DNA of 64,000 bases from Candidatus Multivorans sp. (GTDB lineage: Bacteria > Acidobacteriota > Thermoanaerobaculia > Multivoradales > Multivoraceae), in the NCBI GenBank assembly GCA_965224025.1, contig OZ245033.1, positions 3,264,001 through 3,328,000 of the forward strand, read 5' to 3'. Each line of letters opens with the position of its first letter. Positions within the stretch are counted from its first letter, which is position 1. This document shows positions 39,158 to 50,190 of the stretch, piece after piece. Position numbers and translations under genes: made by a program. The notes under the pieces are model-generated. The model was not told the origin of the DNA, did no database searches, and was given only the letters and a program-made list of their open reading frames with translations.

Positions 39158-40567
39158 CTAGCCTTCCTTCTCGATCAGTTCGAGCGCGTCGCGCAGGTAG
39201 GGGCCGTACTCGGTCTTGCCGGGGCACACGAAGGTGCAGAGCGCCAGATCCTCCTCCAGCAGCTCCAGGCAGCCGAGTTCCTCGGCGCGCTCGATATCGC
39301 CGGCCACCAGCGACTTGAGCAGGAAGCTCGGCTGCAGGTCCCACGGGAAGACGTTCTCGTAGAGGCCGATCGGCACGATCGCGCGCGGCGAGCCCCAGGT
39401 CGTCGTGGTCATGGCGAAGGACCGCCGCGGCAGCAGGGAGGAGGCGAAGGCGCGGGCGCGCGAAAAGGCGCCGAACCCCGGCAGCAGCCAGCCCAGGAAG
39501 CGGCGGCTGTGGTCGTCCTCGAGTGCTGAAACCGTGTCGTGGAAGCGGCCGAGATAGCCGTGAAGTTCCGCCGGCGCTCCTTCGCCGATCGCGGTGCGCC
39601 CGCTCAGTGGCGAGCCGGTGACGACGCGTACGTCGGCGTCGATACCGGTCTCGTCCGCCGCTTCGACCTCGCCTCGCACAAGGTCGGCGAGCGAGGCGCC
39701 GAGCCGGGTGCGCAGCAGTCGCGGCGTGCGCACCGGCGGACCCGCCAGGGCGACGATGCGCGCCACGTCGGGCTCGCCGGTCGCGAACAGGCGGCCGATC
39801 GCCAGGGTGTCCTGAAGTCCGATCTGCCAGACGAGCTTGCCGCGGTCGACCGGGTCCAGTGTGTGGATGTGCAGGCCGGGGGCGCCGGCCGGGTGGGGGC
39901 CGACGAACTCCTCGATCCTCACCTGGCCGCTGGTCTCGACGGCCGCGAGCGTTCCGGGTGCGCGGCAGAGGTAGACCGGGCCGTCCGTCAGCCGGGCCAG
40001 GGCCGCGAGACCCCGTTCCAGGTCACCGGCGCGTCCTTCGGCGATCCGGTCCGCGTCGGGCGCGAAGGGTTCGCTGTTCATCGCGGTCACGAAGATCGAC
40101 TTGGGCTGCGACCCGGGAGCGGCGGTGCGCCCGAACGGACGCGCCCGCAGGGCGGTCCAGTCGCCGGACTCGACCAGCAGCGCCTCCGCCTCCTCGCGGG
40201 AGAGAGCGCTCGGGTGCCTCCCCGTGTAGCTCGCGAAGTCGACCTGGGCGCCGCCGGATGCCGCCTGGTCCGAGGGATCCACCCGCACGACGACCGAGAT
40301 CAGGGCTCGCTTGGCGCCCCGGTTCACTGCCGAGACCGTTCCGGCGGCGGGCGAGGTGAAGCGGACGCCGGGCTGCTTGCGGTCCTCGAACAGGAGTTGT
40401 CCGCGCCGTACCCCGTCGCCCGGCGACACATGCATCGCCGGCTTCATGCCCGGGTAGTCGGCGGCGACGACCGCGACCGCAGACGGTACCGCGGCATCGC
40501 CAAGCGTCTGCTCGGGACCGCCGGCAATGGGCAGGCTCAATCCCCGCCTGAAACGGTGCGTGCCCAT
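39158..40567 (-). CDS. nqrA: Na+-NQR subunit A
   Basis: [28 protein letters not shown]. Confidence 0.96.
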
Positions 40568-40726
40568 CCAATCGTGACGTGCTCTATTCCGGCGATCGAG
40601 CTCTAGTCCGGCGAGCGAGGGCGAATCGGTACGCGTCGCTCGGCCAGTAAGGGACTATTCCACAACGGTGGGGGATCGGCAACAAGGGGGCTCGGGTCGG
40701 GAGAGTCGTTCGACTCACCGTCCAGC

Positions 40727-41020
40727 GTGCAGCGCGATGCCGAAGGCCGCAGGCAGCTCGTTCTGCAGGCCGACGAGGCGATCTACCTCCATCCGTCTCG
40801 GGATCGTCCATCTGGCCTGTACGTCGACGTAGGTAGCGACTCGTTGCCCGACGTCGTCCTCGAAGTCGACTTCTCCACGGACGTTCGCCGCGGCCGTTGT
40901 GGCCGCGCCGGCAAGCTCGCCGACTACGCGGCTTGGGGGCTGCGGGAGATCTGGGTCGAAGTGCCCGACACGGTGAGATCCACGGGTCGCCGCCGGCCCG
41001 GTCTGACCATCTTCCTGCAT
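40727..41020 (+). pseudogene. Truncated Uma2/DUF820 endonuclease paralog
   Basis: QADEAIYLHP...PDVVLEVD...KLADYAAWGLREIWVEVPD parallels the middle of the next gene; both termini missing. Confidence 0.75.
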
Positions 41021-41078
41021 CGCGGGGCGTGGGCGCACGGGACACTGCCTTGCAGGTCCGCCTTGATAGCATCGCTCC

Positions 41079-42080
41079 ATGGATGCTCCGGCAGGCTCGA
41101 CGGCAGCCGCGAACCTCCTGACGGATCATGATCGGACCGGCGGTCTCCTCGGCGGGTGGCTCCGCGCGTACTACGGCTGCGAGACCGTGCCGATGACGGT
41201 GGCGGAGTACGACGACGAGGAGAACGAAGGGCGCCGCGTCGAGTGCTGGGATTCGGTCACGGAGACGGCGCAAATCCTGTGCGAGGGCGCCACCCTGCAG
41301 CACGAAGTAGCGGCGACCCGGTTGGTGCAACTGGTCCGGTCGATCGCCTACGCCCGAGGCTCGGCGATCGTTTCGGCCGGTTCCACTGACATCGTCTCGC
41401 GGAACGACGAGGGTCAGAGGTTCTGCCTGGAAGCCGACGCGACGATCTACCTGCATCCCGGGCGGGATCTGCCGGCCGGCCGATACATCGAGGTCGCGAG
41501 CGATGCGCTTCCGGACCTCGTCCTCGAGGTCGATCACACCACGAACGTGCGCCATCGCCGCCGGCGCGGCCAGCGGAGCAAGCTGGACGATTACGCCGCG
41601 CTCGGTATCCCGGAGTTGTGGGTCGAAGTGCCCGACTCATCCAGGACCCGCGGCCGGCGCCGACCCGGCCTGAGCATTCTGCTGTTGGAAGGCGATGGGT
41701 ACCAAGCGTCGTCGGCGAGCCGGGCGTTTGCGGGCTGGACAGCCGCGGAGATCCACAGCGCCCTGAACGAGCGGGAAGAGTCCGCCGAGACGGCCTCCGT
41801 CCTGCGACGGGTGGGCCGGACGATGGGCGCCGCCGAAGGCACCGGGCCGGACGACGATCCGTTCCTTCGGCAGGAGCGCAGGGAAGCCGCCGCGAACCTC
41901 GTCCGCGCGGCGGTTTCCGAGGCGTTCGTTTCGCGCGGCATCCCGGTTTCGGACGCGTTGAAGCAATGGCTCGTAGGATCCGAGAATCCGTCCGATCCGG
42001 CAGGGGTGATTCGACTCGCGTTCACTTGCCGGGATGCGGACGAGTTTCTGAAGAGGGTCGAAGCAGCGAAACGCGGCTGA
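41079..42080 (+). CDS. Uma2/DUF820 family PD-(D/E)XK endonuclease-like protein
   Basis: HE motif, EAD..IY, PDLVLEVD, K..DY..LGIPELW. Confidence 0.85.
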   Translation: MDAPAGSTAAANLLTDHDRTGGLLGGWLRAYYGCETVPMTVAEYDDEENEGRRVECWDSVTETAQILCEGATLQHEVAATRLVQLVRSIAYARGSAIVSAGSTDIVSRNDEGQRFCLEADATIYLHPGRDLPAGRYIEVASDALPDLVLEVDHTTNVRHRRRRGQRSKLDDYAALGIPELWVEVPDSSRTRGRRRPGLSILLLEGDGYQASSASRAFAGWTAAEIHSALNEREESAETASVLRRVGRTMGAAEGTGPDDDPFLRQERREAAANLVRAAVSEAFVSRGIPVSDALKQWLVGSENPSDPAGVIRLAFTCRDADEFLKRVEAAKRG

Positions 42081-42172
42081 TTGGCCGGGACCGGCGCTCC
42101 GGGGACTGAGAGCTTTCCCGCGCGGGCTGGAGCCCGCGAAGAGCGGGGCTCGGGACGGCGACGATCTCGGGG

Positions 42173-43279
42173 CTATGCTCCCAGCAGCACCGGATGAAGT
42201 GCTTCCCTTGGCTTCAGGGGCTTGATGTGGGCAAGCTTGTTTCGAGCCGCTCGCAACCGCCTCGCCTCGCCCATGACCTTCCCGTTCGGGGGTCCGTGTA
42301 GCTGGAAGTAGTAGAGCAATGGGCCGAGTTCCAGGTCATCCGCTTCCTCAAAGCGCCCCAGTTCGGTCTCGAACGGCAGCTTGAAGTGGGTCCGGTGGCG
42401 GTCGATCAACTCCACCCGCCGCTCCTCCAGCAACGGCATGAGCACGGAGGCTTGCGCTGCCCACAGCCTGCGATCCAGTTCCGCCTCGCGACCCTGGATC
42501 GCCAGCAGCGCGGAATGGACGACCGGCCGACTCCGCGGTCCGTCGACCGTGCCGACTTCCCAGTCCTCGACTGTCTCGGCGATCCAGCCTCGGCCCTTCG
42601 CGTAGCTCTTGAGGATCGCCCAGGGCTGCAGGGCGCTCTGCAGGTCGGTCTCCAGCATCTGCTCGGCCAAGGAATGATCCCACTGCGAAACGTGAGCCAC
42701 CGAGTTCGCCCGGAGGGCGCGGCTCATTCGATGGCGGGAGGAGCCACGACTATCCTCGTGTTGTAGCGCCATTACGTAGAGATCGTCGCGGTGAACCACA
42801 TCCCGGAACTTCCGATGGGTTACCGCCACATCCGACAGGTCGGGTTGCTGGAAACCCGCGCCCTGGAGCGGTACGACGAGCGCCGTGCGTCGGTCTTCGG
42901 GCACGTGATTCCGGCTGGCGTCGGAGTAGGCCAGCAGAAAAGTCCTCCAGGCGGGCCAGCTTTCCGGCGAAACGCCGCTCACCCAGATCAGCCGCTCTTG
43001 GAAGTGCTTTAGGCGGACGAGGTCCGCCACGCTCGCGACCTTTGTTTCCTGCCCCTGTGATGGGAGCACCCGGCGAATGGCCGCAAGAGGGGGAGCCTCT
43101 AGCCCGGCGTCGAGTTCCGACCACCGGAAACCCCAGTGACAGTGCCGTTCGAGTTCTTCGGCGAGACCGTCGGGAATGGCGCTGCCACAGTGGACAACTA
43201 CGCTGGAGCCGTTCCGAAGCTCGTCACCGATGGAGCGGACGAATCGGGCCGGGCCCGGGAGCTGCCAGAGAGACTGCAT
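42173..43279 (-). CDS. Hypothetical protein: degenerate P-loop-like N-terminus and C-terminal HEPN-like RxxxxH motif
   Basis: ELRNGSSVVVHCGS strand/loop; C-terminal LRAARNKLAH; starts 24 bp after the large ATPase gene. Confidence 0.7.
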   Translation of the reverse strand: MQSLWQLPGPARFVRSIGDELRNGSSVVVHCGSAIPDGLAEELERHCHWGFRWSELDAGLEAPPLAAIRRVLPSQGQETKVASVADLVRLKHFQERLIWVSGVSPESWPAWRTFLLAYSDASRNHVPEDRRTALVVPLQGAGFQQPDLSDVAVTHRKFRDVVHRDDLYVMALQHEDSRGSSRHRMSRALRANSVAHVSQWDHSLAEQMLETDLQSALQPWAILKSYAKGRGWIAETVEDWEVGTVDGPRSRPVVHSALLAIQGREAELDRRLWAAQASVLMPLLEERRVELIDRHRTHFKLPFETELGRFEEADDLELGPLLYYFQLHGPPNGKVMGEARRLRAARNKLAHIKPLKPREALHPVLLGA

Positions 43280-43303
43280 GGGCCTCTCAGTTCCCTGCCG
43301 AAC

Positions 43304-46300
43304 TCACAGCAGTTTCCTGACGACCGGATCGATCTGCCAGTCGTCCGCGTCGCTTCGCCGTACAAGATGGAGTTTCTCAGCCACCCAGAGGGCGGAGCGA
43401 AGTTCGTCGTCGTTCAACTCGCAGTCGATGAGGTCGCGGGTCTCCGGGTCGAGAAGACTCTCGAGATTCGCGGAGCCGTGTGCGTCCAGAAGGCGTAAGG
43501 TCTCCGACAACGGGTGAAGATCCAGCCCGAACGCTGGCCGAAGGCGGTCGGCGCTCTCGGTGAGCACCCGATCGAAGCCGCTCGGGTCGACGAGGTCGGA
43601 TGGCTTGGTGTCGCCCTGAAGCCGCTGGACGATCAGCTCGATCAGGATCGGCCAACCGCCCGCGTTGTTCGCGAGTTGCATCTCATCTTCGGGCTTGAGC
43701 TTCTTGCCCACGGCGGAATCTTCGTCCAGACAGACAGCCGCAAAGCCCGGATCCCAAGGCCTGAGAGAGACTAGATCGACGTCTCCCTGGGCCAGCCACC
43801 CGTCCATTGCGTTCTGATGGGAAACCAACTGGCCTGGATCGAGAGCGAAGACGACGCGGGCAAACTTCTCGCGTGATCGGAGGTTACCCAGCAGGCGAAG
43901 CGCTTCGTCGACCCACTGTCCTTCCCAGCCGCCAGGAACGATGATCAGCGTCGTCTCGTGGCCACGGGCGTCGAGACGCCGCTTCAGTTCCTTCCTGAAA
44001 TCGTCGACGCTCGGCGTCGGCTCCAGGAGAATCGCTTCACCTCGTTCCTTCCCCCACTGCAGGAAACTCGCCACGTTCCCTAGTCCCGCCGCCTCTGGTC
44101 CGCAGACCAGGACGACGGCGTTCCCCCGTTGACGGGCGAGCCGATGTGCCGAGTCACCGTGGCCGGAGATCCGACGTTCCTGCCAGAGCGTCAGGGGGCG
44201 GGAACGGGGCCCCTTGTCGTCATGGCGTCTCCGGATCTCGAAGGGTCCGGGTTCCGGAGACGCAGGTCTCTTCTCGAACGATGCCAGCCGTTCCTCAATG
44301 TCGTCCTTGCGGCCAAGCAACGACAATACGTTCGGATTCCGCAGGCTGAAGCGGCGGCGGTCTGTTCCGCCGTACGTGCGACGAAGAACGCCTAGCTCGA
44401 CCATCTCGTCGAGCAACGCCCTGAAGTGTTCCGACTCCCTGTCGCTCTCCTCGAAACCCTGGGGCCACCATACGCGGACGTGACGAAGGACTCGGTCGTC
44501 CCCGATCCCTTTCCGCAGAAGGTCCCGGTCCTCGAGACAGGCGAACGCCACGGTGTAGGCGATCGCCTCGTAGCGCGGGTCGAGCTGGAGCGTCCACTCG
44601 AACCGTTGTCGGATCTCCCTTCCCAGTTCGCGGTCTCGTTGAAGAGCCTCCAGAAGATCGGGACCGATCGCTCGAACTGGAGAACCGGTAGACGCCGACG
44701 GGGCGGAGAGCCGGTTGACCAGCGTGGCGCCGTAGATCTGGAGAAGACTCGGATAGTAATTGGCGCGCGCGAGAACGCTGGTTGCAAGCCGCGTCGGTTC
44801 GAAGCGGTAACCGCAGGCATCGAGCGGCGCACAAAGCAATTCGTGGGCGAATCCGCGTTCCTCCCTTTCGATGAATGGCCCGATCCCGATTGGCCGCTCC
44901 ATATGAGCCAACGGGTGGTTCGACTGGGTAGTCGTGCGCACGACGTTGTGCAGGCCGGCGAAGACCACCTTGATCGAACGATCCTCGTCCATTAGGGACT
45001 TCAGGCGCGTCGACTCGGCGAAAGTCTCACGGCTGCTGTTCATGGCGTCTCGCTGCAGGAAGCGGTCCGCCTCATCAAAGAGCAGCAGGAGGGACTTCCC
45101 TGCAGTGCGGTTGAACTGTCTGAGGAGTGCGTCCCTGAACGCATCGACGTTCCGTCTGGTCGGCTGTCTGGTGCTCTCGTCGATCGCGTCGATGCGCCGG
45201 AGAGCCCGCCACATCGCGACCCAAATGTCCGACGTGTGTTCTTCGCCAACGCCCTCGGCCTTGAGATCGATCCAGGCCGCGAAGCGGCCCTCCGCGGGGT
45301 TCATGAATTCCCGCTCCACGTGTCTCAGCAGAGCGGTCTTGCCCAACTGGCGGCCACCGTAGACCAAGCAGGACCCTCTCTCGAAGTCCTGAATCTCCGT
45401 CACTTCGGCTTCGCGTCCGAAGAACATCTCCGGCGGCACTCGTCCTGCGCGCGGCACGAAGGGCTGGTTCCAGGTGAATGGAAGCGCACAGGCGAAGAAG
45501 GCAGCCAGCCGGGAACCGGACTGGGCGGCCATGAAGATGAGGAGCGGCTCGTCGAGAGTGACCAGCGTCAGCGATTGTTCGTCGCTCAGGCGCGCCAGTC
45601 GCATGTGGGTGCGCTCGCCGACCGGATTGAGGCAGATTGCGATTACGGCTTCCCTGCCCGCCTGCTGGAGGCGCTGGAGAATCGTCTCGGCGGTGGGCGG
45701 TCGGAAGAAGATCAGAAGCCTGTAGTTTCCGTTGGCCTCCGAGCCGAAGTGGGGCACCGGACAGTCATTGCGGCTCCTGAGTGCGGACGCCGTCATCCGG
45801 GCACTTGCGAATTCTCCTGACGCCTGCTCAACGTGAACGGAGACGTCCAGGAAGCCTCCAAGGTTCGAGAACAGTCCTCGGGTCGCTTTCCCGATGGCTT
45901 GCCGGTCTGTTGGGCGGCATCGCTTGAGCGCGCTCCAGCCGTCGAGCAGAGTGGCCGCGGACGCTCGTTCGTTCTGGTCGAGGCGATCGAAGCGCAGTGG
46001 GCCGAGCCGCTTGCCCTGTTTGGCAGAGTCGCGCAGGTTCGGCCAGTCCTCCCCGATCTCTCGCAGGCGTTTGCGGCCGATCGTGCGATGGGTGTCGCGA
46101 AGGCTCGGCCGCTTCGCTCTCTCGTCGCCGAACGCCGCGTGGTCGTCACCGGAGCGGTGGAGGAGCTCGTACGCCGTAACCAGATCGCCGTCGTCGATGT
46201 GCCGTTCGATTCTCACGCGCCGCGGGTCATCCGCGTCCGGGTATGCAGCATGAGCCTCGGCTCGGGCTGCGCTCAGGCTGGCCTGGCTGGCCGCCTCCAG

Positions 46301-49300
46301 TTCCCCCCGGACAGAATTGAGTTCGCCGTTCTCGTGGTTGAAGCGGACGGCCGTTTCCTCCCGGACCACTCTCTCGACGGAATCAAGTCGCGCTTCCAGG
46401 TCAGTGCGTTGCTCCTGCTCGATCTGCCCTTGGGCAAAGGCCAGATCAAGGCGATCGCGTACCTCCTCCAGCTCGGTTCGGAGCGAATCGAGCTGCTCCT
46501 GCTGGGTGCCGTGGATTCTCTGTTTCCAGGAATCGACGGCGCCGTTCTTCATGTCGCCTTCAGTTGTAAGCCAGTCCAGAATGTGCCGGGCCGTGTTGGT
46601 CTCACCGCTTTCTATGTTCCTTGCGAGAGCCTCGTTCAGTGGAAGCGGTTCTGCGTTCAGGAGCACGTCCAGTGCCGCTTCGGGATCGCCTTCGACGAGG
46701 CCACGCTCGTCTATTCGCAGGTCGGGGAAGCCGAAGAGCCCCGAGGCCAGGAGCGGTCGCGGATCGGGTTCATCCGCTTGCGGGCCGACGGTCGCGGGGT
46801 CTACCAACTGATCGACCAGCCTGAGCGACCGGAGCGCAACCGAGCTAGCCGCCCGAGTGAGGGCATGCTGTCGGTGTTCGGCCGCGATCGTTCCCAGTGC
46901 CGACTGCAGCGTCGGCGAGCCGCGTCGCAGCGCGCCGACCAGGTCGTCGATGACCTTCTTCAGGTGGCCGCCACCGGCTTCCGGCGCCGCCTCCATGGAC
47001 AGGTACCGTCGCGAGAGTTCGAGAGGCTCGCGGAGGTGACGCCTGAATTGTCGGAAGATCTTCGTGTCGACGCTTTGGCCATGCGATAGAACCTCATGCG
47101 CTAGGCGGTCGACGATCTTTCGCAGGTGCGACTCGTCCTCCAACTCGGCGAGCAGTCGGCGTACCTCCCCGTGTCCGCCCTGAGTGCGAATCGCTTCGAC
47201 CAGCCGACCGAGCTCGCCCGACGTGGAGAGCGCACGCCATACCTTGTTCGCGGGGGTGTAGGACAACGGACTCTTGGCTGGGCCTTCGCGCCAGGCATCT
47301 ACGTCTTGCAGCAGTTTCAAGAGTGCGTCTTTGTGGGTGGCCTGGTCCCTTGCCGTATGGAGGAGAGTCTCGGCGTCAATCCGCGCCTTCTGGACTTCCC
47401 AACTCCGGGCAGCGATCTCTTGGGCAAATCGGTAGAGCGGGTCGAGCCCCTCATGGACGAGGTCCTGGAGGAGAGAGGTTGCACCGGAGTAGGGCGCCAG
47501 CAACACCGCCGGCATGGCCGCAGCGAAGGAGATCAACGCCTCGGCGTTGATCGAGTCAGACTCCCGGTCGGTCAGGGCCTCCGCCGATGGCGCCTCCTCG
47601 ATCGCTAGTTCATACTCGGCGGACAGACGGCTGTTCGGGCGTGCGAACCGGCTTGCGTAGAGGGCTGCCTCAAGCAGCGCGGCCTGCGGCAGGCCGGCGT
47701 CGATCCCGAGTTCTTCGAGCAGGCGGCAGACGTGCGTCGCGTAGGCAAGGCGGGGCGGATCGGCGGCAAACGCGCGGGCAACCGCCTCTCGGGCGTCCAC
47801 GTGCACGCCGGGCTCGTCGGTCTTTGGCACGGCTTCGGCCTGGTCCCACTCAGGCGATGGCGGAGCGGCGGGCTGTTCCTCGGCCGGAACAGAGTCTTCC
47901 TCGGTGACGGAGGGTGCTCCGGTCTCCTCGGCGGCCACCGGCGATGCTGCGACCGTCGGTTCCTCCGGCGCTTTCGAGTCGGTGGGTTCGCCGCCGTCGC
48001 CGTCGCTCGGCGGGTCGACGCCCGTAGCGACCGGACGAGTAGTTTCGCCCTCGGCAGGTTCGGGTTCACCGGCATCGAACGCCGGCGCCAGCGCCTCGAT
48101 CAGAGCATCCTCCGCGGCTCGTCGTTCACGGCGGCGGCGGGTCGCCTCTTCCCGGAGATCGTCTCGCTCGTCGCGCCAGCCGCGGAGGGCCTGTCTATCC
48201 GAAGGGCGATTGGCGCGGAGCGTGTCGAGCCTGTCTTCCACCTCCCGGTGCTGCGTATCGGACTGTCGCAGATTCTCAACCAGTTGGCCGACCTCGCTCC
48301 GAAGGCGCTCGGTCTCTGCACCGGCCCTGGTCGGGTTGAGGGCAGGAATGCCCAACCAGGCGCCACGAAGTCGTTCAAGCTCTTCGGGATCGACCTCTTC
48401 GCTGGCTGGCTCTCTCTCGATTCTGTCCACGAGCGTACGCGCGAGAGACTGGAGTTCCTCGGTCGCGGTCTTGGCCTTCTGGATCTGTTCGACGCGTTCC
48501 TCGATCTCTTCGAGGTCGGCGATTGCTTGCCGCAACTCGTCGAGGACATCCAAGGCAGGCGGCTTCTCGGTCGCCTCCGTGGCGATAGCCGCCAGCGACT
48601 GGAGCCCCTCGCGCCAGGCAGCCTCGGTTGCCGCACCCCCTTCCGAGGGGGCCGCTCCGTCGCTGTCCCGGCTCACGAAGTCGGCGCCCGACGCCGACGT
48701 CTGGTCCTGTTCTTCGGCTGGAGCGGGAACTTCACCATGCGACTGCTCGTTGACGGGTTCGGGCGCGAGCACTTCGGCGTACTCCTCCTGAAGCTCGGGA
48801 ACCCGGGAGCCGGCCTTGTGCAGGATGCCGTGGTCGTCCAGGACGGTGGCCAGACAGAAGAGCTCGACCGTCTTCCACTCCCGCTCCGCCGTCGCCAGCG
48901 ATGGCCAGTCCTCCAGCCCTTGGAGCAGCTCGGTCGCCGTCTCCCGCAGCCTTGCGCGGTCGGGGGGCTTGTCGTTGCCGCCAGCGGCAGCTTCCGCCGT
49001 CTCGGACGATGCTTCGTCGAAGTACTTCCGGAGGACGTTGATCTCGAGACTCGGCGGCGTCTTGGAGTTGGGAGCGCCTTCGGCGTTCGGCCCATCGAGC
49101 CAAGTCTTCCAGAGTTCTCGGCGGTGGGCGGGGTTTCCGTAGAAGGCGAACATTCGTCTACGGTCGTAGTCGCCCGGCTTGCCGCTGTCAGGACCCAGGT
49201 CTCCGATACGGGCACGCACGAACTCGCGATCCAGAAGGCGGCGACGTTTGGCGCGGTTCAGGTACAGAGGCCGCTGGAGCTTCGCCAAGCCGGTCAGGCA

Positions 49301-49348
49301 GCGCGGGAGTCCATGCCCGAGCGCCAGACGGCGTTCCTGATCCTTCAT
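43304..49348 (-). CDS. Giant (2014 aa) STAND/AAA+-type ATPase with coiled-coil N-terminus and a second, degenerate NTPase module
   Basis: VPPEMFFGRE, Walker A GGRQLGKT (45335-45358), Walker B LLLLFDEAD (45065-45091), VVFAG; later VLVCGPEAAG and GGWPIL; GGAGG SD at 49357-49361. Confidence 0.85.
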   Translation of the reverse strand: MKDQERRLALGHGLPRCLTGLAKLQRPLYLNRAKRRRLLDREFVRARIGDLGPDSGKPGDYDRRRMFAFYGNPAHRRELWKTWLDGPNAEGAPNSKTPPSLEINVLRKYFDEASSETAEAAAGGNDKPPDRARLRETATELLQGLEDWPSLATAEREWKTVELFCLATVLDDHGILHKAGSRVPELQEEYAEVLAPEPVNEQSHGEVPAPAEEQDQTSASGADFVSRDSDGAAPSEGGAATEAAWREGLQSLAAIATEATEKPPALDVLDELRQAIADLEEIEERVEQIQKAKTATEELQSLARTLVDRIEREPASEEVDPEELERLRGAWLGIPALNPTRAGAETERLRSEVGQLVENLRQSDTQHREVEDRLDTLRANRPSDRQALRGWRDERDDLREEATRRRRERRAAEDALIEALAPAFDAGEPEPAEGETTRPVATGVDPPSDGDGGEPTDSKAPEEPTVAASPVAAEETGAPSVTEEDSVPAEEQPAAPPSPEWDQAEAVPKTDEPGVHVDAREAVARAFAADPPRLAYATHVCRLLEELGIDAGLPQAALLEAALYASRFARPNSRLSAEYELAIEEAPSAEALTDRESDSINAEALISFAAAMPAVLLAPYSGATSLLQDLVHEGLDPLYRFAQEIAARSWEVQKARIDAETLLHTARDQATHKDALLKLLQDVDAWREGPAKSPLSYTPANKVWRALSTSGELGRLVEAIRTQGGHGEVRRLLAELEDESHLRKIVDRLAHEVLSHGQSVDTKIFRQFRRHLREPLELSRRYLSMEAAPEAGGGHLKKVIDDLVGALRRGSPTLQSALGTIAAEHRQHALTRAASSVALRSLRLVDQLVDPATVGPQADEPDPRPLLASGLFGFPDLRIDERGLVEGDPEAALDVLLNAEPLPLNEALARNIESGETNTARHILDWLTTEGDMKNGAVDSWKQRIHGTQQEQLDSLRTELEEVRDRLDLAFAQGQIEQEQRTDLEARLDSVERVVREETAVRFNHENGELNSVRGELEAASQASLSAARAEAHAAYPDADDPRRVRIERHIDDGDLVTAYELLHRSGDDHAAFGDERAKRPSLRDTHRTIGRKRLREIGEDWPNLRDSAKQGKRLGPLRFDRLDQNERASAATLLDGWSALKRCRPTDRQAIGKATRGLFSNLGGFLDVSVHVEQASGEFASARMTASALRSRNDCPVPHFGSEANGNYRLLIFFRPPTAETILQRLQQAGREAVIAICLNPVGERTHMRLARLSDEQSLTLVTLDEPLLIFMAAQSGSRLAAFFACALPFTWNQPFVPRAGRVPPEMFFGREAEVTEIQDFERGSCLVYGGRQLGKTALLRHVEREFMNPAEGRFAAWIDLKAEGVGEEHTSDIWVAMWRALRRIDAIDESTRQPTRRNVDAFRDALLRQFNRTAGKSLLLLFDEADRFLQRDAMNSSRETFAESTRLKSLMDEDRSIKVVFAGLHNVVRTTTQSNHPLAHMERPIGIGPFIEREERGFAHELLCAPLDACGYRFEPTRLATSVLARANYYPSLLQIYGATLVNRLSAPSASTGSPVRAIGPDLLEALQRDRELGREIRQRFEWTLQLDPRYEAIAYTVAFACLEDRDLLRKGIGDDRVLRHVRVWWPQGFEESDRESEHFRALLDEMVELGVLRRTYGGTDRRRFSLRNPNVLSLLGRKDDIEERLASFEKRPASPEPGPFEIRRRHDDKGPRSRPLTLWQERRISGHGDSAHRLARQRGNAVVLVCGPEAAGLGNVASFLQWGKERGEAILLEPTPSVDDFRKELKRRLDARGHETTLIIVPGGWEGQWVDEALRLLGNLRSREKFARVVFALDPGQLVSHQNAMDGWLAQGDVDLVSLRPWDPGFAAVCLDEDSAVGKKLKPEDEMQLANNAGGWPILIELIVQRLQGDTKPSDLVDPSGFDRVLTESADRLRPAFGLDLHPLSETLRLLDAHGSANLESLLDPETRDLIDCELNDDELRSALWVAEKLHLVRRSDADDWQIDPVVRKLL

Positions 49349-49550
49349 CGGTGGGGCCTCCAGAGGGAAGCAGCGACTCTACACCGGTGATGGACGAATC
49401 AGGTCGAGGCTCGACTCACGTGAGCCTACCGGGGGGCATGATTCGGACCCATGAGCGGTACTGTGATCGGTCGGCAGACAGAGTTCCGGGCCAAGCGCCC
49501 CTGGCTTCGTGGCTGCTAACCGACCCTGGTGGGGAGGTGCGATCGCCCGG

Positions 49551-49572
49551 CCCGACCGCAGGGCCTGTCGGG
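49551..49572 (-). terminator. Hairpin directly after the nfuA stop
   Basis: CCCGAC...GTCGGG inverted repeat; no U-tract. Confidence 0.3.
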
Positions 49573-49573
49573 G

Positions 49574-50140
49574 CTACGGCGCGTAGTACGGGTTCGTGCC
49601 CGCGGCGTGGTCGGTCGTGTCCAGCACGCGAGTGACGGACGGTACGGCTTCGAGGATCGCCTGCTCGACTCCCTGCTTCAAGGTGAGGTCAGCCATGCCG
49701 CAGCCCTGGCAGCCGCCGCCCATGGTGATGAACGCGGTCTCCTCCTTGACCTCGAGCAGGGTGACGAAGCCGCCGTGAGCGGCGATCTGCGGGTTGATCT
49801 GGTCGTCGAGGATGCGCTGGACGTCGGCCGCCGCCGAGTCGCCCCAGGCCGAGTTCGGGTTCTCGAACTTGAAACCGCTCTCGGACAGGCGGGTGACGAA
49901 ATCGATCGTGACGCCATCGAGGTCCGGGGCGCTCTCGGAGTCGACGTAGACCTTGAACGTATCGGTTTCCACCACCTCGTCGCCGGGCCGGGTCTCGTCG
50001 AGTCCGACCAGGTCCATCTGGTAGCGGAAGCCGCCGCCGGTGCGGCCGGTGATCGCGATGCGGAGGGCGAGGTCGTCGCGCTCTTCGTCCTTCATCGCTT
50101 CGGCGACCTTCTTCTGTGCCAGTTCGGTGATCGTTAGCAT
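49574..50140 (-). CDS. nfuA: Fe-S biogenesis protein NfuA
   Basis: Degenerate A-type domain plus NifU-like INPQIAAHGG...GGGCQGCG. Confidence 0.92.
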   Translation of the reverse strand: MLTITELAQKKVAEAMKDEERDDLALRIAITGRTGGGFRYQMDLVGLDETRPGDEVVETDTFKVYVDSESAPDLDGVTIDFVTRLSESGFKFENPNSAWGDSAAADVQRILDDQINPQIAAHGGFVTLLEVKEETAFITMGGGCQGCGMADLTLKQGVEQAILEAVPSVTRVLDTTDHAAGTNPYYAP

Positions 50141-50190
50141 GCGCCACATTCTAGCCCCAGAATCCACTTAGCCGAAGGAGTACCCGCGCC

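Follow-up and report, generated by a model that had tools for sequence, protein, structure and literature searches.

Active and inactive STAND ATPases occur as pairs in defence systems: according to the accessible part of PMC12839542, BREX combines the active STAND/ORC ATPase BrxC with the inactive STAND protein BrxB, the inactive STAND being rapidly evolving. HEPN domains of the Swt1/Abi2 clade, with an RNxxxH motif, are found fused to AAA+/STAND ATPases in conflict systems, as set out in the accessible part of PMC3710099. In Avs proteins, effector, STAND ATPase and sensor are joined in one chain. Here, we analysed two adjacent genes of Candidatus Multivorans sp. that lie in a stretch of 64,000 nucleotides (contig OZ245033.1, positions 3,264,001 to 3,328,000 of the forward strand; hereafter the window). 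Both are read from the minus strand of the window, as are all the features of the pair given below, and they encode a giant protein of 2014 amino acids (P0001; 43304..49348, from the open reading frame and its translation) and a partner of 368 amino acids (P0002; open reading frame 42173..43279). On balance, we read the pair as a still unnamed system of conflict or defence, made of a STAND and a HEPN gene and most likely directed against phages or mobile elements. We first describe what carries this reading: the linkage of the two genes, their predicted folds and conserved motifs, how they are distributed, and how variable they are where they are inserted.

Architecture of the giant protein and its partner

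By predicted fold and motifs, the giant protein has a P-loop STAND module with intact Walker A and Walker B motifs, which comprises nucleotide-binding, helical and winged-helix domains (NBD-HD-WHD) at residues 1295-1690 (44279..45466). Homologues numbered 1750 at E<=1e-3, nearly all of about 2000 amino acids. In an alignment of 46 full-length homologues that were 26-88% identical, the Walker A motif GGRQLGKT (residues 1331-1338; 45335..45358) was invariant (46/46, and 37/37 in a further count), with no variation at K1337 and T1338, and so were D1425, E1426 and D1428 of the Walker B motif LLLLFDEAD (residues 1420-1428; 45065..45091). The same alignment showed invariance of H1467, N1468, N1477-H1478-P1479-L1480, H1482, N1530, Y1532 and P1533. 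An AlphaFold2 model of residues 1040-2014, with a predicted local distance difference test score (pLDDT) of 84.5, placed helices first, followed by an alpha/beta domain (1170-1291), the NBD-helical-winged-helix unit (1295-1690) and a second core (1744-2014). The helices and small alpha/beta domain ahead of the active module (residues 1131-1294; 45467..45958) were modelled with pLDDT mostly >90 (model m2c7674c302d9) and hold the invariant residues R1193, C1196, G1202, G1207, Y1209 and D1266.

Structural comparison of the active module with VIA-align gave PAB2304 as the top match (2qen_A, Z 19.6, 327 of 350 residues aligned) and SSO1545 as the second (2fna_B, Z 18.3, 318 residues). Plant NLRs followed at Z 16-17 (wheat G10 NLR 17.1, WRR4A 16.1), and these four matches all span model residues 256-653. 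Cdc6/ORC, MuB, TnsC and BrxC scored Z 12-15, with BrxC represented by 9zdx_A (Z 12.9) and 9zll_A (Z 12.6; solved complex), and MalT (8bob), Avs3 and Avs5 reached Z 11.5, 10.4 and 10.2, respectively. Foldseek with the model of this C-terminal part, which we call the chassis, returned NLRs together with the tandem AAA+ proteins ClpB, NSF and dynein. The intact NTPase with a winged-helix end that an original prediction had read from the letters alone was thus borne out, in all its motifs and in its fold. Pfam yielded only generic P-loop matches for P0001, at residues 1309-1468: AAA_22 with 28.9 bits (cut-off 27) and, below its cut-off of 32.6, AAA_16 with 28.8 bits; a weak match to PF01637 had E 0.0033 and 17.7 bits against a cut-off of 33.2. 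No NACHT, NB-ARC or nSTAND profile of Pfam matched P0001, and no TPR, WD40 or FGE sensor domain was detected in it by Pfam. Sequence and profile searches of the PDB with P0001, P0002 and the alignments A1 and A5 returned nothing or coiled-coil noise only.

A degenerate STAND-like module follows the active one at residues 1691-2014 (43307..44278), with the sequences VLVCGPEAAG and GGWP and with G1750, G1755 and W1899 invariant. As originally predicted, it is devoid of the Walker A lysine, and it also has no acidic Walker B residue. In the model, it has a core in which five strands alternate with helices, and this is followed by a helical bundle and a hairpin. Alignment of module 1 with module 2 by hhalign was collinear over 256 columns, with an E value of 5.5e-4 and a probability of 30%. 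A tandem STAND arrangement with a catalytically dead second copy is therefore supported by the model, and weakly by sequence because this alignment was weak.

The partner is predicted to begin with an AAA+/STAND-like fold without Walker motifs (residues 1-250; 42530..43279; AlphaFold2 pLDDT 90.2). With residues 1 to ~270, 2qen_A was again the top structural match (Z 11.1), followed by Cdc6/ORC, ZAR1, Dark and Avs5 (Z ~10), and Foldseek with the partner model returned Apaf-1, RFC and CED-4; the partner had been said to start like a dead P-loop, and an AAA+/STAND/ORC fold agrees with that description. The rest of the protein (residues 251-368; 42176..42529) is a helical, HEPN-like domain, with helices 265-294, 318-328 and 333-350 in the model. 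It contains the candidate catalytic motif RNKLAH (R346-H351; 42227..42244), put forward on the grounds of its conservation and helix-end position. R346, N347, L349, A350 and H351 were invariant in 25 partner homologues, and RNx[LIVM][AS]H was present in 83 of 86 partner sequences from many phyla, with R346, N347 and H351 conserved in at least 95% of the 86. The motif closes helix 333-350 in the AlphaFold2 model, a conserved E317 lies ahead of helix 318-328, and the last helix is short. In HEPN domains, according to the accessible part of a survey (PMC3710099), a four-helix up-down bundle bears an acidic residue in helix 2 and the Rx4-6H motif where helix 3 ends. The helix-end position of RNKLAH, a motif that the original prediction had singled out, is in keeping with this description. 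The Pfam family HEPN_Swt1 matched 3 of the 25 partner homologues (best E 8.8e-4), and no other HEPN family matched any of them. We consider it probable from these model and motif data that the C-terminal domain of the partner is a HEPN RNase.

The N-terminal part of the giant protein is made up of a head, a coiled coil with a linker, and a long helical region. The head (residues 1-235; 48644..49348) is delimited by alignment A5 of 31 N-terminal regions, with conserved GLP, R76, W80, PSLE, W148 and F164; Pfam, PDB and protein Atlas searches (query residues 1-250) gave no match for it. Residues ~250-420 and ~425-515 (47789..48643) correspond to the predicted coiled coil and the acidic Pro-rich linker. 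For the coiled coil, PADLOC and NCBIfam provided only weak SMC/LmuB/ASRP-type matches, at residues 253-417. The linker was confirmed as a low-complexity stretch, the length of which varies among the homologues in A5. The conserved helical region (residues 521-1130; 45959..47788) is our candidate sensor. Homology with distant members starts here, and no other structured region diverges more within the genus (37-42% identity); a protein Atlas search with residues 500-1200 gave no usable match.

Head and coiled coil (residues 1-390) were also found in proteins of 640-690 amino acids of the same genus (L109:4595-6550(-), L110:5204-7219(-) and L111:5401-7464(-)). These short proteins end in a domain of ~190 amino acids; only five homologues were found and none contained a Pfam family. 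A PDB search with this C-terminal domain gave nothing.

Linkage, distribution and insertion sites

In the genus, the partner gene lay directly downstream of the giant gene, in the same order, at 15/15 loci. We also scanned one genome per species (185,579 species genomes), which gave 380 loci, and analysed the best 80 of them. The HEPN partner was encoded immediately 3' on the same strand in 63 of these, and a PLD-SNF2 helicase gene was found in 11; of the remaining six, three were cut by a contig or locus end and three had no recognisable partner. The adjacency is beyond chance, because the same gene order recurs in 15/15 related and 63/80 distant loci, and the conservation of the pair, raised beforehand as something to look for, is evident at both distances. 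According to the titles of their records, the best 80 loci come from more than 10 phyla and include Acidobacteriota, Binatia, Spirochaetia, Gamma- and Betaproteobacteria, Cyanobacteriota, Nitrospirae, Gemmatimonadota, Latescibacterota, Bacillota, Planctomycetota, Chloroflexota, Ignavibacteria and Rhodothermales, among others. A profile of the C-terminal chassis matched 6534, 4363 and 2612 cluster representatives (50% identity) at E<=1e-3, E<=1e-10 and E<=1e-30, respectively, and the window protein and each of the best 150 relatives had the chassis at the C-terminus. No third conserved gene was found across the 80 loci, and neither mobility genes nor a methyltransferase or PglZ were conserved. 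Copies on plasmids of Salinibacter ruber, Brasilonema and Thiodictyon are annotated only as 'ATP-binding protein' or 'hypothetical protein'.

Within the genus the distribution is patchy. The giant protein was matched in 18/42 genomes, 15 of which have a full-length copy and two of these two copies, and the partner was found in 7/24 genus genomes sampled and in 0/16 genomes of other families of the order. The pair occupies two conserved chromosomal sites. Site A is the interval between nqrA and nfuA; site B is bordered by luciferase-like and AAA_14-DUF4143 genes at one end and by GCS2, SDF, aminopeptidase and GDPD genes at the other. Among five genomes that lack the pair, site A (window 40567-49574; L104-L108) was empty in three and contained only Uma2 in one (G001), and in the fifth (G047) it held two Uma2 genes and a gene for a 1177-amino-acid leucine-rich-repeat (LRR) and reprolysin-like metallopeptidase protein. 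The nqrA-nfuA interval is a variable insertion spot. In genome G054, site A holds the pair as a decayed remnant (L113:5630-8318), with fragments of the giant protein (288-391, 666-824 and 1857-2014) and partner residues 1-288, the HEPN end being lost. In one of the two copies of genome G056 (L010:6177-12290), an in-frame TAG splits the giant gene into open reading frames of 228 and 1790 amino acids, which could reflect a pseudogene or a sequencing error.

The pair is more divergent than its surroundings. Between species, the flanks of site A are 78-98% identical, as compared with 39-48% for the giant protein and 42-55% for the partner; likewise, in Spirochaetia, flanks that are 82-88% identical at the DNA level enclose a system of ~65% identity. 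Mosaic alleles were also observed: two alleles resemble the window protein in head (68-76%) and coiled coil (60-61%), and the same two are only 38-39% identical to it in the helical region and dead module. The fraction of G or C at third codon positions (GC3) is 0.76-0.77 in the pair versus 0.83-0.94 in housekeeping neighbours. Patchiness, site use, hypervariability, mosaicism, GC3 and plasmid copies are typical of accessory or conflict genes.

With regard to the locus in the window, the two co-oriented genes, their spacer of 24 nucleotides (43280..43303, with GAGAGG ahead of the partner ATG) and their position between a Uma2 gene and nfuA were confirmed as first described. The Uma2-family gene (41079-42080, plus strand; PF05685, E 1.5e-9) is on one side, with nqrA/nqrB of the nqr operon beyond it, and the NfuA-type gene (NifU and Fe-S_biosyn domain matches; 49574-50167, minus strand) is on the other. 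A ribosome-binding site and a -10 element had been proposed for the pair. GGAGG does precede the giant ATG (49348) by 8 nucleotides (49357..49361), and this part of the proposal holds. The -10 element is not established, since the hexamer TAGAGT upstream of the giant gene (49376-49381) is a lone 4/6 consensus match and a consensus scan of 41900-49700 gave 0 sigma-70-like promoters (shuffle mean 0.3). The same scan found two terminator-like sites inside the gene body, below the shuffle counts.

In the window, 40727-42080 holds two overlapping adjacent Uma2-like open reading frames of 134 and 333 amino acids. Uma2 genes occur at the nqrA-nfuA site with or without the pair and are divergent among themselves (54-87% identity). 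Uma2 was considered as a third component and dropped, as G001 has it at the site but lacks the pair there, and site B has no Uma2. At site B, the AAA_14 plus DUF4143 ATPase gene adjoins the partner gene (L009:5271-6479 and six other loci).

Exchange of heads and effectors

Thirteen of the analysed loci form a clade without HEPN partner; 11 of these have a gene for a PLD-SNF2 helicase beside the giant gene, and the other two are cut by a contig or locus end. The cyanobacterial relatives of the giant protein have 2343-2453 amino acids and are homologous to the window protein only from residue ~588 on. Among 57 N-terminal regions scanned, eight contained a complete sigma-70 (regions 1.2, 2, 3 and 4) at about residues 180-500, and the sigma-70 core motifs were invariant among these eight cyanobacterial proteins. 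The loci concerned are L053:4756-11943, L091:4528-11871 and six further cyanobacterial loci. When the head of the HEPN clade was compared with the cyanobacterial head by hhalign, the alignment was confined to ~70 residues at the start of the shared core. Instead of the HEPN protein, the cyanobacterial relatives have a partner of ~1100 amino acids with PLDc_2, SNF2/ResIII and Helicase_C domains, which matched the PADLOC models DpdE (E 4e-188), 'HKD+Snf2', DrmD and BrxH, and also the HmaA model.

A further variant is encoded in a Microvirga plasmid record (L115:546-10730), in which a 3394-amino-acid protein with the chassis bears the record label 'RNaseH domain-containing protein' (a label only). 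It is followed by a partner homologue of 538 amino acids (L115:10730-12346) that keeps the motif as RNKVAH and adds a Walker-A domain. A PDB search with the N-terminal part of the Microvirga protein gave nothing.

Heads include sigma-70 and the RNase H-labelled region, and partners are of HEPN or helicase type; therefore, the chassis and a nuclease in trans are the constant elements, and heads and effectors vary.

Readings of the pair and comparison with known systems

We infer defence, binding between the two proteins, a trigger and RNase activity as parts of one mechanism. The partner would dock on the giant protein via its dead AAA+-like domain, by analogy with BrxB on BrxC in BREX. A cue sensed by the N-terminal part would lead to ATP-dependent oligomerisation of the giant protein, and this could bring HEPN domains together into an active RNase, so that RNA is cut and growth or infection is stopped. 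A complex prediction for giant residues 1295-2014 with partner residues 1-275 had a score of 0.00 and carries no weight either way. With hhalign, neither the partner against the giant protein nor the partner N-domain against either module gave a signal.

Several observations weigh against a defence system. Neither protein matched PADLOC, NCBIfam or specific Pfam families, and searches of phage records and IMG/VR contigs gave no relative. P0002 itself had no Pfam match, and PADLOC, NCBIfam and PDB sequence searches with it were also empty. No solved HEPN structure matched the partner in fold and PDB searches, because its AAA+-like domain filled the hit lists; the HEPN call draws on the motif, its position in the predicted model and weak Pfam matches. 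Three of the 80 loci have a giant gene without recognisable partner. The LRR-reprolysin cargo found at site A in G047 is not a defence gene. Around the distant loci, 124 flanking open reading frames, counted with no background control, included few defence-type families: three integrases, two HipA, two HNH_2 and two RE_NgoFVII, besides the alternative helicase partner. Lastly, the flanks are housekeeping in the window and at both genus sites (nqr, nfuA and M16 peptidase; GCS2, SDF and GDPD), with the exceptions of Uma2 and the AAA_14/DUF4143 gene. The original prediction had named housekeeping contexts as a point against defence, and they do count against it, yet the site is variable and empty in sister genomes.

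Among single neighbours, DUF2357, AAA_27, an NB-ARC-TPR protein, a SNF2 helicase and a methyltransferase-like protein are suggestive. A hidden Markov model of the HEPN domain found nothing in the DUF3320 protein beside the Salinibacter copy.

The housekeeping flanks of the window also fit the strongest alternative, which we hold to be possible though clearly the lesser option. According to it, the pair would serve regulation or quality control at the level of transcription or RNA rather than immunity, with the giant ATPase bound to RNA polymerase or nucleic acid via its N-terminal part and the partner processing RNA in normal physiology or in a stress response. The complete and conserved sigma-70 in cyanobacterial giant proteins (8/57 N-terminal regions) would suit such a role. 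STAND ATPases moreover include transcription regulators, and MalT is among the structural matches (8bob, Z 11.5); a preprint on STAND diversity notes, in its accessible part, non-immune STAND clades (10.64898/2026.01.04.697583). Nevertheless, a patchy presence (18/42 genomes), empty sister sites and one decayed copy are unusual for a core machine, as are identities of 39-55% in the pair against 78-98% in its flanks, and the exchange of the partner for a PLD nuclease-helicase of defence type also argues against this role.

The same sigma-70 heads allow an immune variant, that the family is an NLR-like guard of the transcription apparatus with exchangeable 'integrated' heads. Integrated-decoy NLRs of plants offer a counterpart. 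The cyanobacterial sigma-70 head would bait phage anti-sigma or RNA-polymerase-hijacking factors, or would place the sensor on RNA polymerase, and the head of the window's clade, which matched no described domain, would do likewise. Once its head is engaged, the tandem STAND chassis would be switched on and release the trans nuclease, be it the HEPN RNase or the PLD-SNF2 helicase. We regard this version as doubtful.

Similarly doubtful to us is the idea that the pair acts as a toxin-type or selfish addiction module, which would persist through harm to cells that have lost it, or as a weapon in a conflict not involving phages, with the ATPase restraining a HEPN toxin. Toxin-antitoxin and abortive-infection systems commonly use HEPN domains as toxins (PMC3710099, accessible part), plasmid copies adjoin transposases, and patchy distribution and mosaic alleles would fit. 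However, an ATP-dependent multi-domain protein of 2014 amino acids is far larger than any antitoxin, and no mobility genes are conserved with the pair. The G054 remnant, moreover, keeps partner residues 1-288 alongside a fragmented giant gene, which is unexpected if the latter encodes an essential antidote, although the HEPN end has been lost there.

We consider it highly improbable that the pair represents an incomplete version of a described multi-gene system (BREX or BREX-related, Dpd, DISARM or Hma). In its favour, BREX does join active BrxC with inactive BrxB (PMC12839542, accessible part), BrxC is a structural match (9zdx, Z 12.9) and the cyanobacterial alternative partner matches DpdE, DrmD, BrxH and HmaA models. 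Against it, the models for BrxC, PglY, HmaC, Dpd and Drm left P0001 and P0002 unmatched, the 80 loci share no methyltransferase, PglZ or other third gene, and PAB2304 and SSO1545, rather than BrxC, are the closest structures.

Returning to a two-gene conflict or defence system, which we favour, the pair occurs widely, has no name and shows, as judged from its sequences, the patterns of evolution and movement of a bacterial immune system. If it is a defence system, a large family (2612 clusters at E<=1e-30; 380 loci) would be added to the STAND/NLR-like immune repertoire, and the swapped heads (the domain of the window's clade, sigma-70 and the RNase H-annotated region) and effectors on one chassis would constitute a natural experiment on how sensing is coupled to killing. 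The hypothesis is directly testable because copies exist in cultivable bacteria; carriers named in the records are Paenibacillus flagellatus DXL2, Roseateles flavus 2.12, Azoarcus sp. TTM-91 and, with plasmid pSR118, Salinibacter ruber. In our literature searches we did not find the pair described, and the accessible part of 10.64898/2026.01.04.697583 makes no mention of such a pair; the 589 STAND clades of that preprint may already include the ATPase.

The best folds for the active module, the archaeal ATPase_2 proteins PAB2304 (2qen) and SSO1545 (2fna), of which PAB2304 was also the best for the partner N-domain, are stand-alone proteins of ~350 amino acids and unknown role, unlike the giant protein of the window. 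Fusions of the Swt1/Abi2 clade (Ava_2192/DUF499-Hma; STAND-TPR-S1) carry HEPN N-terminal on an active ATPase, whereas the HEPN-like domain of the window partner is C-terminal to a dead AAA+-like domain in a separate protein; neither protein of the pair had a DUF499 match. As in the window pair, active and inactive STAND-like modules are present in one system in BREX with BrxC and BrxB. The pair differs from BREX in that it comes without PglZ, methyltransferase, BrxA or BrxL, matches no BREX model, and has its inactive module fused to a HEPN-like domain. As to the Dpd system, only the cyanobacterial alternative partner has a match (DpdE), and the window genes match no Dpd model. None of the BrxC, PglY, HmaC, Dpd and Drm models of PADLOC matched P0001 or P0002. 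The pair is thus not BREX, BREX-related, Dpd, DISARM or Hma, because there is neither a model match nor a third gene.

With Avs and bacterial NLR-like proteins, the pair has in common the STAND NBD-HD-WHD switch, a large variable part outside the ATPase, a nuclease-type effector and a patchy distribution. In contrast to Avs, the long variable part is N-terminal here and the ATPase C-terminal, the active STAND module is followed by a dead second one, and the effector candidate is on a separate protein with its own dead AAA+-like domain; PADLOC Avs models gave no match. Because of the reversed domain order, the separate effector and the missing model match, the pair is not an Avs protein, in keeping with the initial view that the layout does not resemble Avs and could not be assigned to a named system; neither PADLOC nor NCBIfam returned a match. 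Its layout departs from that of known systems, combining a variable candidate sensor at the N-terminus, three AAA+-like modules of which one is predicted to be active, and a putative nuclease in trans.

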